Shown one piece after another: positions 2,609-49,003 of a stretch of 64,000 nucleotides of DNA (positions are counted from its first letter, which is position 1; every line of letters starts with the position of its first letter). Source of the DNA: an uncultured Gammaproteobacteria bacterium (GTDB lineage Bacteria > Patescibacteriota > Patescibacteriia > S139-126). The translations under genes and the position numbers were made by a program. A model generated the notes under the pieces. That model did no database searches. It was given only the letters and a program-made list of their open reading frames with translations, and was not told where the DNA came from. Location: NCBI GenBank assembly GCA_964620905.1, contig CAZUKA010000001.1, forward strand, positions 18,141 to 82,140, in the 5' to 3' direction.

Positions 2609-4351
2609 ATGCAAATAAATGACTTTAACTGGAAAATAGGCGGTGAGGCCGGTTTTGGTATTATGTCATCTGGTATGATGTTTGCCAAAGTGTGTACCAG
2701 ATCAGGACTTTTTATACATGATTACAGCGAGTACCCATCGTTGATTAGAGGCGGACACAATACTTATCAAGTTTACGTAAATAGTAAAAAGATATTTAGC
2801 CAACGACGAGTGGTTAATTTGTTAGTGGCACTAAATACCCAAGCCATTAGTGAACACCTAGGTGAACTTATTGCCGGGAGCGGCCTAATTTGTGATAGCA
2901 CCAGAGTTCAAATACCAACTAAAATACTTAGTAAACAAAAAATTAAATTATACGATTTGCCATTAAATAAAATTGCCAAAGAAGTAGGTGGTGATGAAGT
3001 CATGCGCAATACTGTAGCTTTGGGTGCAACCGTGGCACTGATAAAATTTGATTTTAAAATTTTGGAAAATATTATCAAAGACCAGTTTGCTCATAAAGAT
3101 GATCAAGTATCAGTACAAAATATCAAAGCCGCACGTAGTGGTTATGAATATATCAAGTCGCATTATCAAGTTGATGATTTTGGTTTTAAGTTGCATCCAC
3201 AAACCAATAAAGAACAAATTGTTCTCACAGCCAATGATGCAGTAGCACTCGGGGCCATCGCCGCTGGTTGTAAGTTTTATGCAGCTTATCCTATGACCCC
3301 ATCTTCTTCTATTTTACATACCTTAGCGGAGATTGGTCCTAAATATGGCATGGTAGTTAGACATGCTGAGGATGAAATATCAGTTATCAATATGGTTGCC
3401 GGTGCTGCGACTGCAGGTGTCAGAGCTATGCTTGGTACATCTGGTGGTGGTTGGGCTTTGATGAATGAAGGCTATTCTCTGGCTGGCATCACGGAAACCC
3501 CTTTGGTTGTGATTATGTCACAGCGCCCAGGTCCGGCGACAGGACTACCAACTTGGACTGAACAAGGGGATTTGAAATTTATTTTAAACTCTGGTCATGG
3601 TGAATTTCCGCGCATTGTATTGACCCCTGGAGATCAAGAAGAAGCATTTTATTTGACCCAACTAGCCTTTAATATTGCTGAAATAGTGCAAAATCCCGTG
3701 ATTATCATGTTGGACAAATATATTTCTGAAAGCCATTTATCCCTACCTTTTTATAATTGGCAAAAGTCAAAAATAAAACGAGGGAAAATTTTGGAAGATA
3801 GTGAAGCTAAAAAGATTGGTGACAAATACCAGCGTTATAAACTGACAACGGATGGCATTTCACCTCGCGCACTACCGGGGCAAGTTGGACCTATTATTTT
3901 TATCAATTCTGATGAACATGACGAGATGGGTTTTAGCGAAGAATCAGCTGATAATCGTATTGGTCAAGTGGAAAAGAGATCTAGGAAAATAAAACAAATA
4001 GTAAAAGATTTACCTCAAGCTAGGTTGTATGGACCAAAAACAGCTACTTGTACTTTGGTAGGTTGGGGCAGTGTCAAGGGGCCAGTACTTGATGTTTTAC
4101 AAAGTAAAAAATTGAAAAAGTCAGTTAATTTTATACATTTTCCCATGTTAGCACCGTTACCTGTCAACGCTCAAAAGTTACTAACAACTGCAAAACGACT
4201 GGTATTGGTAGAAAATAATTCCACCGGCCAGCTAGCTGATGTTTTACGTTCTGAATCAAACGTAGTTTTTCGTAAAAAAATATTACGCTATGATGGGCGG
4301 CCTTTTTATAGTGAAGATTTAGTGAGAGAGATAAATAAGATTAAATTATAA
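2609..4351 (+). CDS. korA: 2-oxoacid:ferredoxin oxidoreductase, alpha subunit (fused gamma-alpha type; KorA/PorA-like)
   Basis: The N-terminal motif GGEAGFGIMSSGMMFAKVCTRSG...IRGGHNTYQV is typical of the POR/KOR gamma-like domain. It is followed by the transketolase-like alpha domain (AAYPMTPSS, GAATAG, MSQRPGPATGLPT). The adjacent beta subunit supports the call. Confidence 0.85.
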   Translation: MQINDFNWKIGGEAGFGIMSSGMMFAKVCTRSGLFIHDYSEYPSLIRGGHNTYQVYVNSKKIFSQRRVVNLLVALNTQAISEHLGELIAGSGLICDSTRVQIPTKILSKQKIKLYDLPLNKIAKEVGGDEVMRNTVALGATVALIKFDFKILENIIKDQFAHKDDQVSVQNIKAARSGYEYIKSHYQVDDFGFKLHPQTNKEQIVLTANDAVALGAIAAGCKFYAAYPMTPSSSILHTLAEIGPKYGMVVRHAEDEISVINMVAGAATAGVRAMLGTSGGGWALMNEGYSLAGITETPLVVIMSQRPGPATGLPTWTEQGDLKFILNSGHGEFPRIVLTPGDQEEAFYLTQLAFNIAEIVQNPVIIMLDKYISESHLSLPFYNWQKSKIKRGKILEDSEAKKIGDKYQRYKLTTDGISPRALPGQVGPIIFINSDEHDEMGFSEESADNRIGQVEKRSRKIKQIVKDLPQARLYGPKTATCTLVGWGSVKGPVLDVLQSKKLKKSVNFIHFPMLAPLPVNAQKLLTTAKRLVLVENNSTGQLADVLRSESNVVFRKKILRYDGRPFYSEDLVREINKIKL

Positions 4352-4404
4352 ATTATCAATTATAAATTATAAATCAATTTTTATAATTTAAAATTAATAC
4401 AACT

Positions 4405-13510: not shown

Positions 13511-13673
13511 CTTTTTTGACAACAAAAAAGTAGCAAAAAATTGCGTCCAATGCTTTGGTTCAGGCAAAATTGCCAATCCGCTCGTGTGCCTCTCAAAATC
13601 GCTTGCGCTAGTTGAGAGGCAAAATTCACTCGCTCCTTGACAATATTTGCACTTCACAAAGCAAATGGCCGAA
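13511..13673 (+). repeat. Family A palindromic repeat element, copy 1 (about 160 nt)
   Basis: Aligns over about 150 nt with 21219-21380. Shared core is gttcaggcaaaattgccaa.cgctcg..tgcctctcaaaa.cgctt.c.ctagttgagaggcaaa. Contains a 9-bp hairpin gcctctcaa/ttgagaggc. Confidence 0.7.
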
Positions 13674-21127: not shown

Positions 21128-21218
21128 TTTTAAATTATAAATTGTAAATTTTAAATGTAATTGTCATTCCCGTGTAAACGGGAATCCAAAAATTAAAAAT
21201 AAAAGATTTTTTATTTCA

Positions 21219-21380
21219 ACTTTTTGTCAGCAAAAAGTAGCAAAAACTGCCGACCAGCGCTTCCGTTCAGGCAAAATTGCCAAACGCTCGCTTGCCTCTC
21301 AAAAGCGCTTACTCTAGTTGAGAGGCAAATCCCGCTCGTTTATTGGCAATTTTTCACTTCAGGAAGCGGAAGGTCGGAAT
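21219..21380 (+). repeat. Family A palindromic repeat element, copy 2
   Basis: See copy 1. Same orientation, extended imperfect palindrome (ccgaccagcgcttccg...cggaagcggaaggtcgg outer arms; gcctctcaa/ttgagaggc inner hairpin). The tracker ORF 21224-21412 lies inside it and is judged spurious. Confidence 0.7.
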
Positions 21381-21615: not shown

Positions 21616-21675
21616 ATTGTCATGCTGAACTCGTTTCAGCATCTTATGAGATTCCGAACCAAGTTCGGGATGACA
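21616..21675. repeat. Family C compound hairpin repeat (attgtcatGCTGAAc..gTTTCAGCatcttatgagattcCGAACcaaGTTCGggatgac), copy 1
   Basis: Two adjacent perfect hairpins enclosed by gtcat...gatgac. A near-identical copy lies at 48942-49003. Confidence 0.7.
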
Positions 21676-21699
21676 AAAAATAAAAAAATTAAAATGCCA

Positions 21700-21842
21700 T
21701 TCCGTATTTAATACGGAATCTAAAAACAAAAAAATATTTATTTTTTGGATTCCTGACTAGATCAGGAATGACAAGGAAAATTGATTTCTGATATATTACA
21801 AAAGTAAAATTCCTGCCACTACAGGCAGGCAGGAATGAAAAA
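21700..21842. repeat. cluster of Family D hairpins (stems beginning ATTCC... and ending ...GGAATGACAA), BIME/REP-like
   Basis: Three hairpins read directly: cattccgtatttaatacggaatc; ggattcctgactagatcaggaatgacaagg; aattcctgccactacaggcaggcaggaatgaaaa. Related hairpins occur at 21163-21186, 24846-24945 and 25253-25335. Confidence 0.65.
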
Positions 21843-24311: not shown

Positions 24312-24689
24312 ATGAAAAAAACAGTTTATTTTATCCTGTCTTGGCTAGGAGTAGCTATTTTAGCCTGGCTAACAGCCAGTATTGGTAAAAATATTTACGG
24401 CATATTTTTTCCTGATCAAGTAATGGGTACTTGGATTAATATCATTGAGCCTGGTATTATAGAAGGATTTGTATTGGTATATTTATTTTGGCTGGGACTT
24501 TTGTTTGTGCCCGTGTTTAAAACCAAATGGTGGCAGTATGCTTTGGCACCGGGTTTAATATTATTTTTACCTTTTATGCTTTTTTGGCAAATTGCTCTAA
24601 TGGGGATAATGTTCTTTGCGGTTGGAGTGGGGTTGGGGTATCTGGCGCTTTGGTTGAAGAAAAAAATTGGTACAGGATTTAAGATTTAG
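24312..24689 (+). CDS. small integral membrane protein (about 4 TM), unknown function
   Basis: Hydrophobic 125-aa ORF starting 4 nt after the lipase-like gene. Confidence 0.5.
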   Translation: MKKTVYFILSWLGVAILAWLTASIGKNIYGIFFPDQVMGTWINIIEPGIIEGFVLVYLFWLGLLFVPVFKTKWWQYALAPGLILFLPFMLFWQIALMGIMFFAVGVGLGYLALWLKKKIGTGFKI

Positions 24690-24810
24690 GATTTATGATT
24701 TAAGAATAGATTTTTATTCCCTCTCTTAAAATAAGAGAGGGTTAGGGAGAGTTATATTTTTGATTTTAACCCCCTTAGTCCCCCTTATATTAAGGGGGAA
24801 AAGAGAAAGT

Positions 24811-24873
24811 AAGATTTATATGAAGGTTTATTTTAGATTTTTTTGGATTCCTGCCTGCGCAGAAATGACAAGG
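24811..24873. repeat. 63-bp perfect direct repeat, upstream copy (flanks the GIY-YIG gene)
   Basis: aagatttatatgaaggtttattttagatttttttggattcctgcctgcgcagaaatgacaagg is identical to 25220-25282. The downstream copy starts inside the last 8 codons (KDLYEGLF*) of the GIY-YIG ORF. Confidence 0.85.
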
Positions 24874-24957
24874 ATAAATACAAAAATGTCATTCCTTATT
24901 TAATAAAGAACATCTTGTCATCCCTGACTTGATCAGGGATTTAAAAATAAAAAAAAG

Positions 24958-25245
24958 ATGAGAGAGTATTTTGTTTATATTCTGGCTAGTAATATAAATG
25001 GCACATTGTATATAGGTGTGACTTCAGATTTGAAGAAAAGGATATATGAACATAAAAATGATTTAGTACCAGGTTTTACCAAGAGATATAAAATTCATGA
25101 TTTAGTTTATTTTGAAGTAACCAATGACATCAGAGAAGCATTACTTAGAGAAAAAAGATTAAAAAAATGGAAAAGAGAGTGGAAAATTAAGCTAATTGAA
25201 AAAAATAACCCAAGTTGGAAAGATTTATATGAAGGTTTATTTTAG
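24958..25245 (+). CDS. GIY-YIG nuclease superfamily protein (UPF0213/URI-domain, about 95 aa)
   Basis: YFVYILASNINGTLYIGVTSDLKKRIYEHKN...RLKKWKREWKIKLIE matches the GIY-YIG / conserved Arg / His / Glu pattern of stand-alone GIY-YIG proteins. Confidence 0.8.
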   Translation: MREYFVYILASNINGTLYIGVTSDLKKRIYEHKNDLVPGFTKRYKIHDLVYFEVTNDIREALLREKRLKKWKREWKIKLIEKNNPSWKDLYEGLF

Positions 25246-25282
25246 ATTTTTTTGGATTCCTGCCTGCGCAGAAATGACAAGG
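25220..25282. repeat. 63-bp perfect direct repeat, downstream copy
   Basis: Identical to 24811-24873. Spacing between copies is 409 bp. Confidence 0.85.
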
Positions 25283-25376
25283 GAGAAGGGATTCCTGTTG
25301 AAGTTTATCCGCTAAATAAGCGGGATAGGAATGACAAAAGAAAAGCGGAAGGTCATAATACCTTAATATATATAAC

Positions 25377-25690
25377 ATGGAGATAAAATTTCTTTTACCT
25401 GAAATAAAAAGATATATTTTTAGTCTTGAGAATAATATGCCACAAAGAGTTTTTCGGGTTATAGATTTACTGAAGAGGTTTGGTAGTAATTTACCTATGC
25501 TCTTATCCGAAGTTTAGGAAAGGGATTGTTTGAATTGAGAATAAAAGGGAATAAAGAAATAAGAATATTTTTCTGTTTTTATAAAGATCAGGCAGTTTTA
25601 TTGCATATATTTACAAAGAAAACAAAAACTATACCCTTTAGAGAATTAAATATAGCTAAAGAGCGAATGAAGGACTTGACTGAATTATAA
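25377..25690 (+). pseudogene. frameshifted HigB-like (Gp49/RelE-ParE superfamily) toxin gene
   Basis: The N-terminal frame gives MEIKFLLPEIKRYIFSLENNMPQRVFRVIDLLKRFGSNLPMLLSEV then a stop. A -1 frame continues YALIRSLGKGLFELRIKGNKEIRIFFCFYKDQAVLLHIFTKKTKTIPFRELNIAKERMKDLTEL. Together they reconstruct a typical HigB/Gp49-like toxin. Total length 314 nt is not a multiple of 3. Confidence 0.6.
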
Positions 25691-25711: not shown

Positions 25712-26002
25712 ATGAAGAAAAAAATATATTTAGAATCATATTCTAGAGTAAAAAAACAAGCTTTTCGTAAAAAAGGTTTTAAAAAGGCTTATGATGAATT
25801 GGAGCCTGAGTTTGCTTTGATTGAGATGATAATTGCCAAGAGAATTGAAAAAGGAATGACGCAAAGTCAGTTGGCAAAGAAAATGGGTACTAAGCAATCA
25901 GCTATTTCCCGACTGGAAGGAGGCGAGTACAATCCCTCATTGGATTTTTTGAAAAAATTGTCCAAAGCACTTGATGTCAAAATGAAAATATCATTTAATT
26001 AG
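25712..26002 (+). CDS. HigA-like antitoxin, XRE-family HTH DNA-binding protein
   Basis: MTQSQLAKKMGTKQSAISRLEGGEYNPSLDFLKKLSKALDVKMKI is a classic XRE HTH. It sits immediately downstream of the toxin remnant, in HigB-HigA gene order. Confidence 0.75.
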   Translation: MKKKIYLESYSRVKKQAFRKKGFKKAYDELEPEFALIEMIIAKRIEKGMTQSQLAKKMGTKQSAISRLEGGEYNPSLDFLKKLSKALDVKMKISFN

Positions 26003-27524: not shown

Positions 27525-27920
27525 TTATGAAGTATGATTTAAGAGTTCTTTAGTTTTGGTTAAAAAACCCTGCAATAACGCATGTGTAGTATTTGCTTGT
27601 TCGACCAATGATTTAAAATCTGTTTCATTTAAATAGCCAACATCTTTGGCAATCAATATTTGATCTTTTAATTCAGTCAAAGAGCCGTGGGCTTGATAGT
27701 AAAAGCGTAGCTTATCTTTGAACCCTTGTCTACCAAAACCTTCAGCAATATTACTTGTAACTGAACTTGATGATCTTCTCATCTGATCAACTAAAGAATA
27801 AGTTTCTTCTTTGGGAAAATTTTTGGTTATAGAATAGATTAAAATGACGAGTTTATGTCCTTCTTGCCAAACTTTTAAATCAGTAAAAGATTTTATTTTA
27901 TTATTTTCTAATTTATTCAT
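27525..27920 (-). CDS. four-helix-bundle protein (23S rRNA intervening-sequence protein family, TIGR02436-like)
   Basis: FTDLKVWQEGHKLVILIYSIT..FPKEE.YSLVDQMRRSSSSVTSNIAEGFGRQ...GSLTEL matches the four-helix-bundle family signature. Flanked on both sides by AT-rich heptamer repeat tracts. Confidence 0.75.
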   Translation of the reverse strand: MNKLENNKIKSFTDLKVWQEGHKLVILIYSITKNFPKEETYSLVDQMRRSSSSVTSNIAEGFGRQGFKDKLRFYYQAHGSLTELKDQILIAKDVGYLNETDFKSLVEQANTTHALLQGFLTKTKELLNHTS

Positions 27921-45232: not shown

Positions 45233-47440
45233 ATGAAAAAAACCTTAAATATTTTTTTGATTATAGCAGTCACGCTAAGCGTGATGAATTTTTTTGTTGT
45301 GCCGGCTTGGGCTGATGAAAAAAAAAGTTTTAGTGCTGATGAAGTAGTAGTGAAATTGAAAGCCAGTGACCAGCTCTATATACTATCAACCAAGCAAGGT
45401 ATAGATACAGAATTTTTATTGAACAACTACCAAACTAATGAGTTGATTGAATATGTGGAACCAAATGTTAAATTTTTCGCTGCTGGTGTTTTGCCCAATG
45501 ATCCTGATTTTATCCAGCAGTATTATTTGGATCAAATACAAGCGCCGGCTGGTTGGGATATTTCTACCGGTCGATCCGATGTGGTAGTTGCTGTGTTGGA
45601 TAGTGGTGTGGATATTGATAATCCTGATTTAAAACATAACCTCTGGGTCAATGTCAATGAAAAACCATTTGATTTAATTGACAATGATGGCAATGGTAAG
45701 GTAGATGATTTTTATGGTTGGAATTTTGTTGATGAAAATAATGACGTCAAACCAAACTTTACCAATTTTACTGAACTGGGGGTAAATCACGGTACAATCG
45801 TATCTGGAATTTTGGCTGCTCGCGGAAATAACGGCCAAGGTATTGCCGGAGGTGCATGGCAAGTAAAAATTATGCCCCTAAAAGTTTTGGCTAGTGACGG
45901 CACGGGTGATTCTCTGACAGTAGTAGAAGCAATAAATTATGCCATTGCCAAGAAGGTAGACGTGATTAATTTGTCTGTAGTTGGTCATAGTTACAGTCAG
46001 GCCCTGCAAGATGCTCTACAACGTGCTTGGGAAGCTGGCATTGTCATCGTAGCAGCAGCTGGCAATGAAGTGGGACTAGGACAGGATATGGATATTTATC
46101 CGGCTTATCCTGCTTGCAATGATGGTGTAGATAATATAATTATCGGGGTAGTAGCGGTTGATCGTTATAATCGCTTGGCGAATTTTTCCAATTATGGTTC
46201 AAGATGTTCTGATGTAGCTGCACCGGGAGTAAATTTTTATTCTACAGTAGCTTACAATGACCATTTCCCAGGTTTTAATCATCATTATAAAGGAGGATTC
46301 TCTGGTACATCGGTAGCTACACCTTTGGTTTCAGCACTGGCGGCTTTAATTAAATCAGTAAATCCCAGTTTAACCAACGTACAAATCAGAAATATTATTA
46401 TCAATACAACTAGTGAGATTGATTCGGTGAACCTGAATTATCAAGGTAAGTTGGGTTCGGGACTTATAGATTATAATCGCGCCTTAGGGGCTGCCAAGGC
46501 CACAGTCGCTAGTACCGCTCAACCGGTGAGTCAGGATTGGTTGGTAGTGGGGGCCGGTGCCGGTGGTGGGCCGCATGTGAGAGTATTTGATTGGCAAGAT
46601 AATGTTTTGACCCAATGGTTTGCTTATGACGAAAAGTTTCGTGGTGGAGTCAATGTTGCCACCGGAGATGTTGATGGTGATGGTAATCGTGATATTGTCA
46701 CTGCACCCGGTGCCGGTGGTGGGCCGCATATCAGAATTTTTGATCATCAGGGCAATGTCAAAGCCCAATGGTTTGCTTATGACGAAAAGTTTCGTGGTGG
46801 AGTCAATGTAGCGGTCGGTGATATTGACAATGACGGATTAGCAGAAATTATTGTGGCACCAGCGGGCGGAATGGAGACGATCGTCAAAATATTTGATTAT
46901 ACCGGGCATATGCGTTTTAAGTTTTTAGCTTATGCTGACAATTTTATCGGTGGTGCTAGTATTGCAGTTGGTGATGTTGATAATAATGGTTTGGCTGATA
47001 TTATCACTGGAGCTGGTTCTGGTGGTGGTCCGCATGTGAGAGTATTTTCTCGTCAGGGACAGATAAAGCAACAATGGTTTGCTTATGACGAAAAGTTCCG
47101 TGGTGGAGTCAATGTAGCGGTCGGTGATGCCAATAATGACAATCAAAAAGATATAGTCACTACTCCAGGTCAAGGCGGTGGGCCGCATGTGAGAGTATTT
47201 GATTGGCAAGGCAAAGTAAAACAGCAATGGTTTGCTTTTCCTCCCGAAAACCGTACCGGACTAAAAGTTGCCGTTGGAGATATTACTGGTGATGGGCAAA
47301 ATGAGATTTTGGTAGCAATGCAAAAGGGTGGTGAACCCTTGGTGCGGATTTTCAATTCCGCTTATAAATTAGTCAAAGAAATTTCTGTTTTTCAAGCCGG
47401 TTTTACCGGTGGAATAAATTTACAAATATTAAGCCGTTGA
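45233..47440 (+). CDS. secreted subtilisin-like serine protease (peptidase S8) with C-terminal FG-GAP/beta-propeller-like tandem repeats
   Basis: Signal peptide present. Catalytic triad motifs are Asp VAVLDSGVD, His HGTIVSGILAA, and Ser GTSVATPLVSALAAL. Then 5-6 copies of a ~50-aa repeat G.GGGPHVRVFDWQG....WFAYDEKFRGGVNVAVGD.D.DG..DIVT. Confidence 0.85.
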   Translation: MKKTLNIFLIIAVTLSVMNFFVVPAWADEKKSFSADEVVVKLKASDQLYILSTKQGIDTEFLLNNYQTNELIEYVEPNVKFFAAGVLPNDPDFIQQYYLDQIQAPAGWDISTGRSDVVVAVLDSGVDIDNPDLKHNLWVNVNEKPFDLIDNDGNGKVDDFYGWNFVDENNDVKPNFTNFTELGVNHGTIVSGILAARGNNGQGIAGGAWQVKIMPLKVLASDGTGDSLTVVEAINYAIAKKVDVINLSVVGHSYSQALQDALQRAWEAGIVIVAAAGNEVGLGQDMDIYPAYPACNDGVDNIIIGVVAVDRYNRLANFSNYGSRCSDVAAPGVNFYSTVAYNDHFPGFNHHYKGGFSGTSVATPLVSALAALIKSVNPSLTNVQIRNIIINTTSEIDSVNLNYQGKLGSGLIDYNRALGAAKATVASTAQPVSQDWLVVGAGAGGGPHVRVFDWQDNVLTQWFAYDEKFRGGVNVATGDVDGDGNRDIVTAPGAGGGPHIRIFDHQGNVKAQWFAYDEKFRGGVNVAVGDIDNDGLAEIIVAPAGGMETIVKIFDYTGHMRFKFLAYADNFIGGASIAVGDVDNNGLADIITGAGSGGGPHVRVFSRQGQIKQQWFAYDEKFRGGVNVAVGDANNDNQKDIVTTPGQGGGPHVRVFDWQGKVKQQWFAFPPENRTGLKVAVGDITGDGQNEILVAMQKGGEPLVRIFNSAYKLVKEISVFQAGFTGGINLQILSR

Positions 47441-48941: not shown

Positions 48942-49003
48942 ATTGTCATACTGAACTTGTTTCAGCATCTTATGAGATTCTGAAACAAGTTCAGGATGAC
49001 GGT
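48942..49003. repeat. Family C compound hairpin repeat, copy 2
   Basis: attgtcatactgaacttgtttcagcatcttatgagattctgaaacaagttcaggatgac. Compare 21616-21675. The tracker ORF 48920-49108 is spurious. Confidence 0.7.

Follow-up and report, generated by a model that had tools for sequence, protein, structure and literature searches.

The small single-domain GIY-YIG proteins of the Ssn family (CDD cd10448) were described by Chenal et al. (2025, Nat Commun, PMC11893778) as site-specific nucleases that act on single-stranded DNA (ssDNA) only. According to that work, SsnA of Neisseria meningitidis (Nm) has 94 aa, Ssn proteins bind an oriented hairpin repeat, the NTS (CGTCATTCCCGCGMAVGCGGGAATCYRG), generalised as the SRM, and cleavage takes place a few nucleotides 5' of the hairpin. 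An SRM was found near 71% of the Ssn homologues and on both sides in 42%; the enzyme was shown to have a role in limiting transformation in Neisseria, and the arrangement NTS-ssnA-NTS was likened to an insertion sequence, its mobility being hypothesised only (PMC11893778). Here, we analyzed a gene of this kind, ssn, together with its hairpins and a 63-bp direct repeat, in a stretch of 64,000 nt from contig CAZUKA010000001.1, which as a whole is referred to as the window. The association of gene and hairpin and the likely biochemistry are already published, and the locus is a divergent member in a genome similar to those of the candidate phyla radiation (CPR). The explanation that we regard as probable is a joint one, i.e., that gene and hairpins form an Ssn cassette, and that the 63-mer is a recent partial duplicate or converted remnant of a neighboring cassette.

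Like the Ssn/NTS-SRM system (PMC11893778), the locus has a GIY-YIG protein of a single domain (about 95 aa) in which the Y/Y/E residues are equally spaced, an oriented hairpin in which an ATTCC…GGAAT palindrome is preceded by GTC and followed by C, and inverted hairpins on both sides of the gene, along with many solo intergenic hairpins. It differs in its stems (ATTCCTGC and ATCCCTGA), which fail the published degenerate pattern, in its AT-rich, CPR-like host, and in adding an orphan gene tail and comparative evidence of exchange. The neisserial dRS3-RS-dRS3 arrays (Bentley et al. 2007, PMC1797815) are similar in part, with clustered 20-bp palindromes of the ATTCCC-N8-GGGAAT type and short variable spacers; these arrays vary in number and length between related genomes, and it was proposed that they favor the exchange of genes next to them. 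In contrast, the arrays of the window are small (3-6 hairpins), belong to another phylum and directly enclose a nuclease gene. The REP/BIME elements with their RAYT (Y1 HUH) proteins, and the REPIN doublets, also have a small nuclease gene between inverted copies of a hairpin recognised as ssDNA, gene-less inverted doublets (here at 21619-21674 and 48945-49000) and clustered arrays, but the enzyme of the window is a hydrolytic GIY-YIG nuclease and not a HUH tyrosine transposase. We know of no strand-transfer chemistry for a GIY-YIG nuclease of this kind. IS200/IS605 elements have subterminal hairpins recognised as ssDNA and cleavage a few nucleotides away; unlike those of the window, which are inverted, their hairpins lie on the same strand, and the locus showed no TnpA gene and no sign of excision or insertion. 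Membership in REP/RAYT or IS200/IS605 was rejected on the grounds that the GIY-YIG open reading frame (ORF) is the sole gene between the hairpins and that no HUH Y1 transposase gene is present. Free-standing GIY-YIG homing endonucleases (I-TevI, Seg) share the catalytic domain and a gene far more similar between genomes than its flanks; they have 200-250 aa, carry a separate DNA-binding domain and cut double-stranded DNA, whereas the protein of the window has 95 aa. A classical GIY-YIG homing endonuclease, which needs a C-terminal DNA-binding domain and a match to TIGR01453, was rejected, since there are only 95 aa and the score to this model was 27.8 bits, with a cut-off of 56.05.

The ssn gene and its hairpins

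The features of the locus are listed below; loci on other contigs are designated by L and a number.

24669..24914, no strand assigned: lineage-specific 246-bp patch, which replaces 38 bp of the relatives (alignment and blastn against L004, L085 and L001, with manual comparison)
24811..24873, plus strand: copy A of the 63-mer, with an orphan ssn 3' end (24811-24836), spacer, SRM hairpin (24845-24869) and AAGG; exact match to copy B
24888..24914, plus strand: decayed SRM (GTCATTCCTTATTTAATAAAGAACATC), related to the hairpin at 21697-21722 (24883-24905 against 21691-21713, 91% identity)
24915..24940, plus strand: upstream SRM, TTGTCAT-CCCTGAC-TTG-ATCAGGGAT, followed by T and not C; also present upstream of ssn in L001
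24958..25245, plus strand: ssn, encoding a 95-aa single-domain GIY-YIG nuclease (Ssn family)
25220..25282, plus strand: copy B of the 63-mer, with the last 26 nt of ssn (25220-25245), an 8-nt spacer, SRM hairpin (25254-25278) and AAGG
25254..25278, minus strand: downstream SRM, GTC-ATTTCTGC-GCAG-GCAGGAAT-CC, with the GTCAT end facing away from the gene and CC after the palindrome
25289..25335, minus strand: second downstream SRM with a small hairpin nested in its loop, from a long-loop scan (fold z = -3.4), then CC; homologous units in L004 and L001

The ssn product matched Pfam PF01541 with E = 3.5e-16 over residues 4-77, and the gene is single-copy within the window. Residues Y7, GTLYIG 15-20, R28, H32 and E65 were invariant across this protein and 16 homologues, and the spacing of Y7, Y18 and E65 is that of the catalytic Y6, Y17 and E64 of Nm SsnA (Nm residues from PMC11893778). 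Homologues of about 95 aa are found in the thousands, most with 92-100 aa and a minority with up to 155 aa, and homologues with 53-70% identity to the window protein adjoin canonical NTS. Exact-protein look-ups with the ssn product and with two junction-spanning ORFs gave no match, nor did a PDB sequence search with the ssn product; an NCBIfam scan of the product gave sub-threshold matches only, and a PADLOC scan gave no match for ssn. Judged by its sequence, the unit is best taken as an Ssn cassette with a divergent hairpin variant, whose protein, by homology with the neisserial SsnA, would bind the hairpin only as ssDNA and cut a few nucleotides 5' of it.

The hairpins of the window consist of GTC, a palindrome that starts with ATTCC or ATCCC and ends with GGAAT or GGGAT, and then C or T. 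That of the 63-mer reads CCTT-GTC-ATTTCTGC-GCAG-GCAGGAAT-CC on the minus strand, where it folds better, the stem change being a G·T pair on this strand and a C·A mismatch on the plus strand. The upstream SRM at 24915-24940 gave a DNA fold of -8.1 kcal/mol (z = -3.2). Oriented hairpins that begin with GTC were found on both sides of ssn, at 24917-24940 on the plus strand, with T in the place of C after the palindrome, and at 25256-25278 and 25291-25335 on the minus strand, with CC after it. A structure-based scan for GTC followed by a stem of at least 7 bp starting from AT, with a loop of 3-8 nt, a definition looser than the published pattern, returned 11 sites in the window, when 1.7 were expected and 100 shuffles never gave more than 5. 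Nine of these sites were convincing, and one additional hairpin has a nested loop. The convincing SRMs are all intergenic with respect to predicted genes, and they cluster at 21.1-21.8 kb, 24.8-25.3 kb and 48.9-49.0 kb. The dRS3 definition was fitted exactly by 21166-21185, and not by the 63-mer hairpins (ATTCCTGC…GCAGAAAT) or the hairpin at 24920 (ATCCCTGA…). A whole-window Rfam scan at gathering thresholds gave one tRNA only, so the hairpins are not a curated RNA family, and a scan for promoters and terminators lent no support to a regulatory role of copy A. The 26-mer GGATTCCTGCCTNCGCAGRAATGACA was present in at least 120 metagenome contigs from many environments (JGI, loci L089-L208), nearly all as solo hairpins, which say little about orphan tails; among the matches listed, about 7 of 91 sites had a real ssn gene upstream.

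ATGACA, with which the nested SRM ends on its outer side, and CATAAT after 17 nt (25331-25359) agree with a sigma-70 promoter in 10 of 12 positions, immediately 5' of the toxin gene. Like the Correia elements of Neisseria, SRMs might serve as a source of -35 boxes.

The arrangement of hairpins was surveyed in 80 homologous loci from many phyla, counting hairpins within 300 nt of the gene. Upstream hairpins were on the coding strand in 47 cases and on the opposite strand in 12; downstream, 64 were on the opposite strand and 11 on the coding strand. An inverted pair with outward GTCAT ends was observed in 39 of the 80 loci, and the background more than 1 kb from the gene was 0.03 hairpins per 300 nt. 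The canonical Neisseria NTS, with up to 2 mismatches, is present next to the gene in 14 loci of the 80, among them L008 and L018 of the CPR. One upstream and one inverted downstream SRM, as in the window, is therefore the norm of the family. The first-pass annotation had pointed out the hairpin embedded in each repeat and linked it to mobility of the GIY-YIG gene; the link to the gene stands, but the published Ssn/SRM system went unrecognised there, and in that system the hairpin is no mere passenger, being the site recognised by the nuclease in ssDNA (PMC11893778).

The 63-bp repeat and the origin of its upstream copy

The 63-mer AAGATTTATATGAAGGTTTATTTTAGATTTTTTTGGATTCCTGCCTGCGCAGAAATGACAAGG occurs in two exact copies, at 24811-24873 and 25220-25282, both on the plus strand and offset by 409 bp. 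No further match was found within the window when up to 3 mismatches were allowed, and none was expected by chance (100 shuffles). Each copy is made up of the last 26 nt of ssn (KDLYEGLF and the stop), an 8-nt T-rich spacer, the 25-nt hairpin GGATTCCTGCCTGCGCAGAAATGAC and AAGG; copy B starts 26 nt before the end of ORF 24958-25245, i.e., at its last 8 sense codons plus the stop. A metagenome scan for the junction of gene tail and spacer gave no match.

The window resembles a metagenome-assembled contig, and the repeat exceeds common k-mer sizes, as would suit an assembly artefact, i.e., a collapsed or looped repeat in a metagenome-assembled genome. However, the upstream junction was reproduced in independent Logan assemblies of two sequencing runs, whose contigs L087 and L088 match the window exactly up to their common end at 24840, 30 nt inside copy A. 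Contig L209, from the run of L087, has its first nucleotide at 25253, where 30 nt of copy B are left, and is identical to the window over 3750 nt. Contigs thus break 30 nt into the 63-mer from each side, as a k=31 assembly graph does at a genuine two-copy repeat, and the gene segment between the repeats can be reached solely through the repeat. These data confirmed that the repeat is real, and we consider an artefact extremely unlikely. The earlier claims of 63-bp perfect direct repeats 409 bp apart around the GIY-YIG gene, and of a downstream copy that starts within the last 8 codons and leaves an orphan 3' end upstream, were both borne out, by exact search and independent assemblies and by the 26 nt of the ORF that lie in the repeat, respectively.

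Orthologous loci with proteins 99% (L004), 97% (L085) and 93% (L001, L002 and L003) identical to that of the window share the gene order LCAT-like lipase, small membrane protein, ssn, and a toxin-antitoxin pair or its remnant, and each has one upstream SRM and downstream SRMs. The upstream 63-mer was found in none of these five. Homology between the window and its relatives ends at about 24668, in the last codons of the membrane-protein gene, and restarts at 24915, with the TTGTCAT of the upstream SRM; besides copy A and the decayed SRM, the intervening 246-bp patch includes two small hairpins of unrelated sequence and the arm of an AT-rich repeat. Moreover, both 63-mer copies carry GCAGAAAT, whereas every relative has GCAGGAAT, and the A of GCAGAAAT was seen in only 2 of 132 occurrences of the hairpin in metagenome contigs. 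This rare stem variant, common to both copies, indicates that they are sister copies that arose or were homogenised recently within the lineage. Collectively, this comparison showed that copy A is recent and lineage-specific in origin, and an ancient fixed duplication, the outcome that the first-pass annotation had set against its own proposal, is contradicted by the orthologous loci.

The layout reads [gene tail - SRM(-)] - 14 nt - [decayed SRM(+)] - [SRM(+)] - ssn - [SRM(-)], which is that of a head-to-tail cassette pair, the first one reduced to its last 63 bp. A second cassette would have stood head-to-tail just upstream, with only its gene tail and hairpin now left. Copy A may have arisen by local duplication of the cassette followed by deletion, or an older remnant may have been homogenised by gene conversion; either route would suit a hairpin-rich, recombination-prone array. 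The upstream copy is best read as a decayed or partial tandem duplicate, one of the two options offered in the first-pass annotation.

Immediately 5' of copy A, GGAAAAGAGAAAGT was considered as a deleted form of the WKREW region of the gene; with 3 mismatches in 21 positions and overlap with an unrelated hairpin, the match was rejected as probably due to chance. The patch also recasts the C-terminus of the 125-aa membrane protein (24669-24689), which reads KKKIGTGFKI* in the window, KKKIS* in L004 and L085, and KRKIS* in L001.

Exchange between lineages, arrays and decay products

The ssn gene of the window is much closer to those of its relatives than the neighboring genes are. Its synonymous divergence (dS) was 0.04 from L004 (nucleotide identity of 99%), 0.08 from L085 (98%), 0.15 from L086 (97%) and 0.20 from L001 (94%). 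The corresponding values were 1.15-1.24 for the membrane-protein gene (73-78%), 0.64 for the antitoxin gene (87%), 1.5 for the LCAT-like gene (70%) and 1.5 for the GT4 gene (77%). Synonymous divergence of ssn was 6-30 times below that of the flanking genes, and values of 0.04-0.20 next to 0.64-1.5 indicate that the cassette was exchanged or converted across lineages long after the hosts diverged. The tract of high identity with L004 runs from just past the upstream hairpin (~24941) to the end of the downstream hairpin (~25280). The upstream hairpin is found as one variant in L004 and L085 and as another in the window and L001, showing that the locus is a mosaic. Locus L086 has a cassette with a 97% identical protein and no membrane-protein gene in the 307 bp upstream, on a contig of only 630 bp, and this cassette possibly occupies a different location. 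Collectively, recent horizontal exchange with tract boundaries at the hairpins was shown, in agreement with the proposal for Neisseria that dRS3/NIME arrays help neighboring genes to be exchanged (PMC1797815) and with the insertion-sequence remark on the Ssn unit (PMC11893778). A limited literature search, in which one Ssn paper was found, returned no earlier report of horizontal exchange for Ssn cassettes, and to our knowledge the comparative evidence of exchange is new for them.

Self-comparison of 81 loci, by an automatic survey and then by eye, revealed further arrays and decay products. L081 (BQMY01000086.1, Melioribacteraceae; 3060-4360) carries an intact array in which a 418-bp unit with a 95-aa ssn is repeated 3.1 times in tandem, with the structure SRM(-)-linker-[SRM(+)-ssn-SRM(-)-linker]x3-SRM(+). 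In L059 (Parcubacteria), a hairpin and the final 73 nt of the gene form an orphan directly 3' of the intact gene; in L057 (Bacteroidales), internally deleted units with the first 39 nt of the gene flank an intact gene on both sides; and in L001, a gene-less SRM(+)/SRM(-) doublet stands right after the intact cassette. Apparent orphan tails in L034, L062, L079, L055 and L077 were dropped, as they were repeated hairpins overlapped by read-through ORFs. Clusters of complete, truncated or gene-less cassettes were thus observed in 4-5 of the 81 loci, in unrelated phyla, and other loci have adjacent paralogues. Orphans of both the 5' and the 3' gene end exist, so truncation is not polar, which fits duplication and deletion in hairpin arrays better than strictly one-ended copying. 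In the L081 array, the units are 93% identical and the middle copy is frameshifted at its 3' end; the contig also carries another ssn locus, L075, at a distance of about 8 kb.

The window itself has gene-less and solo hairpins away from ssn:

21163..21185, plus strand: solo SRM GTCATTCCCGTGTAAACGGGAAT, which fits the Neisseria dRS3 ATTCCC-N8-GGGAAT and has one mismatch to the published SRM pattern
21619..21674, no strand assigned: gene-less SRM doublet (plus SRM, then minus SRM), fold -14.8 kcal/mol, z = -4.9
21749..21772, minus strand: solo SRM with the outer flank ...ATGACAAGG as in the 63-mer; 85% identity over 40 nt to 24839-24877
48945..49000, no strand assigned: second gene-less SRM doublet, 83% identical to the doublet at 21.6 kb

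The doublet at 21619-21674 resembles an internally deleted cassette.

Other features of the window were also recorded. The toxin-antitoxin pair beside the cassette (25377-25690 and 25712-26002 in the window, 899-1521 in L004) is decaying: its Gp49/HigB-like toxin is split in two ORFs in the window and intact in L004, and the whole pair is deleted in L001 (5406-5470). There, the deletion junction falls in a 10-nt microhomology, GCACTTGATG, which occurs both in the nested-SRM loop and at the 3' end of the antitoxin gene. A stretch of about 130 nt that forms an imperfect palindrome (21250-21378; ssDNA fold of -33.5 kcal/mol, z = -4.45), for which Rfam gave no match, has a 70-nt copy with 80% identity 7.7 kb away (13579-13648) and may be another miniature mobile element. 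The AT-rich repeat GATTTAAGATTTATGATTTAAGAAT is found at gene ends (24676, 26285, 27515, 28778, 43104, 43467 and others), often with an inverted form (TCATAAATCATA...), and possibly serves this genome as a terminator or in regulation. Five tandem units of 153 nt at 46466-47293 lie inside a 735-aa ORF (45233-47440) and form a protein-level repeat. A gene for a 23S-rRNA-intervening-sequence protein (four-helix bundle) is at differing positions in the window (27525-27920) and in L001 (1371-1730), which suggests another small relocating gene.

Alternative explanations and significance

The explanation of an Ssn cassette beside the recent remnant of a neighboring one has several points to answer. 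The published sequence criteria for the Ssn family are E < 1e-10 to Nm SsnA (CAX49033.1) or an rpsblast score > 100 to cd10448, and the assignment made here was based instead on the domain, the residue spacing and the hairpins. The published SRM pattern, HGTCWYN(0-2)YYVSBRHN(0-5)WNVSBRGN(0-2)RNCYNB, had no exact match window-wide; at one mismatch, the sole real hairpin matching it was 21162-21189, and at two mismatches the 38 matches (27 ± 6 expected) were at chance level. This pattern is a search device that lies within 500 nt of just 35 of the 80 homologues, and the weak fit indicates that the hairpins of the window are a divergent variant. Upstream of copy A, neither an L-type hairpin nor anything else of a first cassette can be seen, so that duplication plus deletion needs two recent events; an ectopic copy of the 63 bp alone is a possible source of copy A, and other copies or a donor locus may lie elsewhere in the genome, as the search for the 63-mer covered the 64-kb window. 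Finally, the low dS of ssn could reflect constraint on the DNA itself, which is unlikely for a 6-30-fold effect.

Among the alternatives, a nick by Ssn on the minus strand outside the downstream hairpin could have started repair synthesis that copied a hairpin and a variable stretch of adjacent DNA, here 34 nt that include the gene tail, into another hairpin site upstream; the 63-mer would then be a conversion tract anchored on one side at the nick. Nm SsnA cut 3 nt 5' of CGTCAT, as read from oligonucleotide lengths (PMC11893778), and when this cut is transferred to the window it falls at 25282/25283 and 24873/24874, the right edges of both copies; in addition, the partial hairpins of L004 all retain the ...CAGGAATGACAAG end and are shortened on the other side, and the signatures of horizontal exchange are bounded by hairpins. 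However, a single matching boundary is weak, with about a 1 in 10 chance of coincidence, the copies in L059 stay homologous for at least 11 nt past the predicted cut, and the L057 orphans retain the 5' end of the gene, which speaks against polar truncation. GIY-YIG enzymes, moreover, hydrolyse DNA without strand transfer, leaving the rest to host repair, and we hold this sequence of events to be unlikely. A generic tandem duplication of about 409 bp, by slippage or unequal crossing-over, with later loss of most of the first unit, differs from the preferred explanation solely in giving the hairpins no role other than that of bystanders. It would account for a structure of two perfect repeats with a unit between them in a region that is a patchwork of unrelated repeats, but the recurrence of cassette clusters in unrelated phyla points to a property of the cassette, and we regard it as quite improbable that the hairpins were uninvolved.

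The direct repeats that bracket the gene, and the resemblance of NTS-ssnA-NTS to an insertion sequence (PMC11893778), would suit an actively transposing GIY-YIG element that has the 63-mers as its functional ends or as a target-site duplication. This idea is very hard to sustain: L004, L085 and L001 carry near-identical cassettes at the same site without the upstream repeat, 63 bp far exceeds known target duplications, the upstream repeat holds ssn coding sequence, and the boundary across the family is the inverted hairpin pair and not direct repeats. The other option of the first-pass annotation, a mobile or tandemly amplifying cassette, was right as to cassette behavior, given the dS of ssn 6-30-fold below its flanks, and as to amplified units, which exist elsewhere (the 418-bp units of L081). 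Whatever the origin of copy A, perfect 63-bp direct repeats now enclose a 409-bp unit with ssn. RecA-dependent exchange usually needs about 25-50 bp of homology, which 63 bp exceeds. Recombination of this type between the 63-mers could delete ssn, leaving one hairpin and the gene tail, or amplify the unit into arrays like that of L081, and a change of copy number through the repeats is plausible.

A bolder reading, which we consider doubtful, is that the cassette is an actively spreading selfish element in CPR-like bacteria, homing-like and initiated by ssDNA nicks, which inserts or copies itself beside existing hairpins at the Ssn cut site. If true, the hairpins would be portable sites of recombination or nuclease entry for sweeps between diverged genomes, the orphan tails, gene-less doublets and tandem arrays would be footprints of one process, and this process would be the hydrolytic-nuclease counterpart of REP/RAYT.

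The 63-bp repeat by itself is a minor structural detail. The Ssn paper (PMC11893778) left open both the mobility of the unit and the multiplication of its hairpins, and this locus and its relatives give comparative evidence on both: the cassette is much younger than its genomic neighborhood, with the young tract stopping at the hairpins, and cassettes accumulate head-to-tail and decay to orphan tails and gene-less doublets. If this is true more widely, REP-like repeats would have in Ssn a second route of proliferation, one with a different chemistry, and Ssn systems would contribute to the plasticity of the tiny genomes of CPR bacteria.

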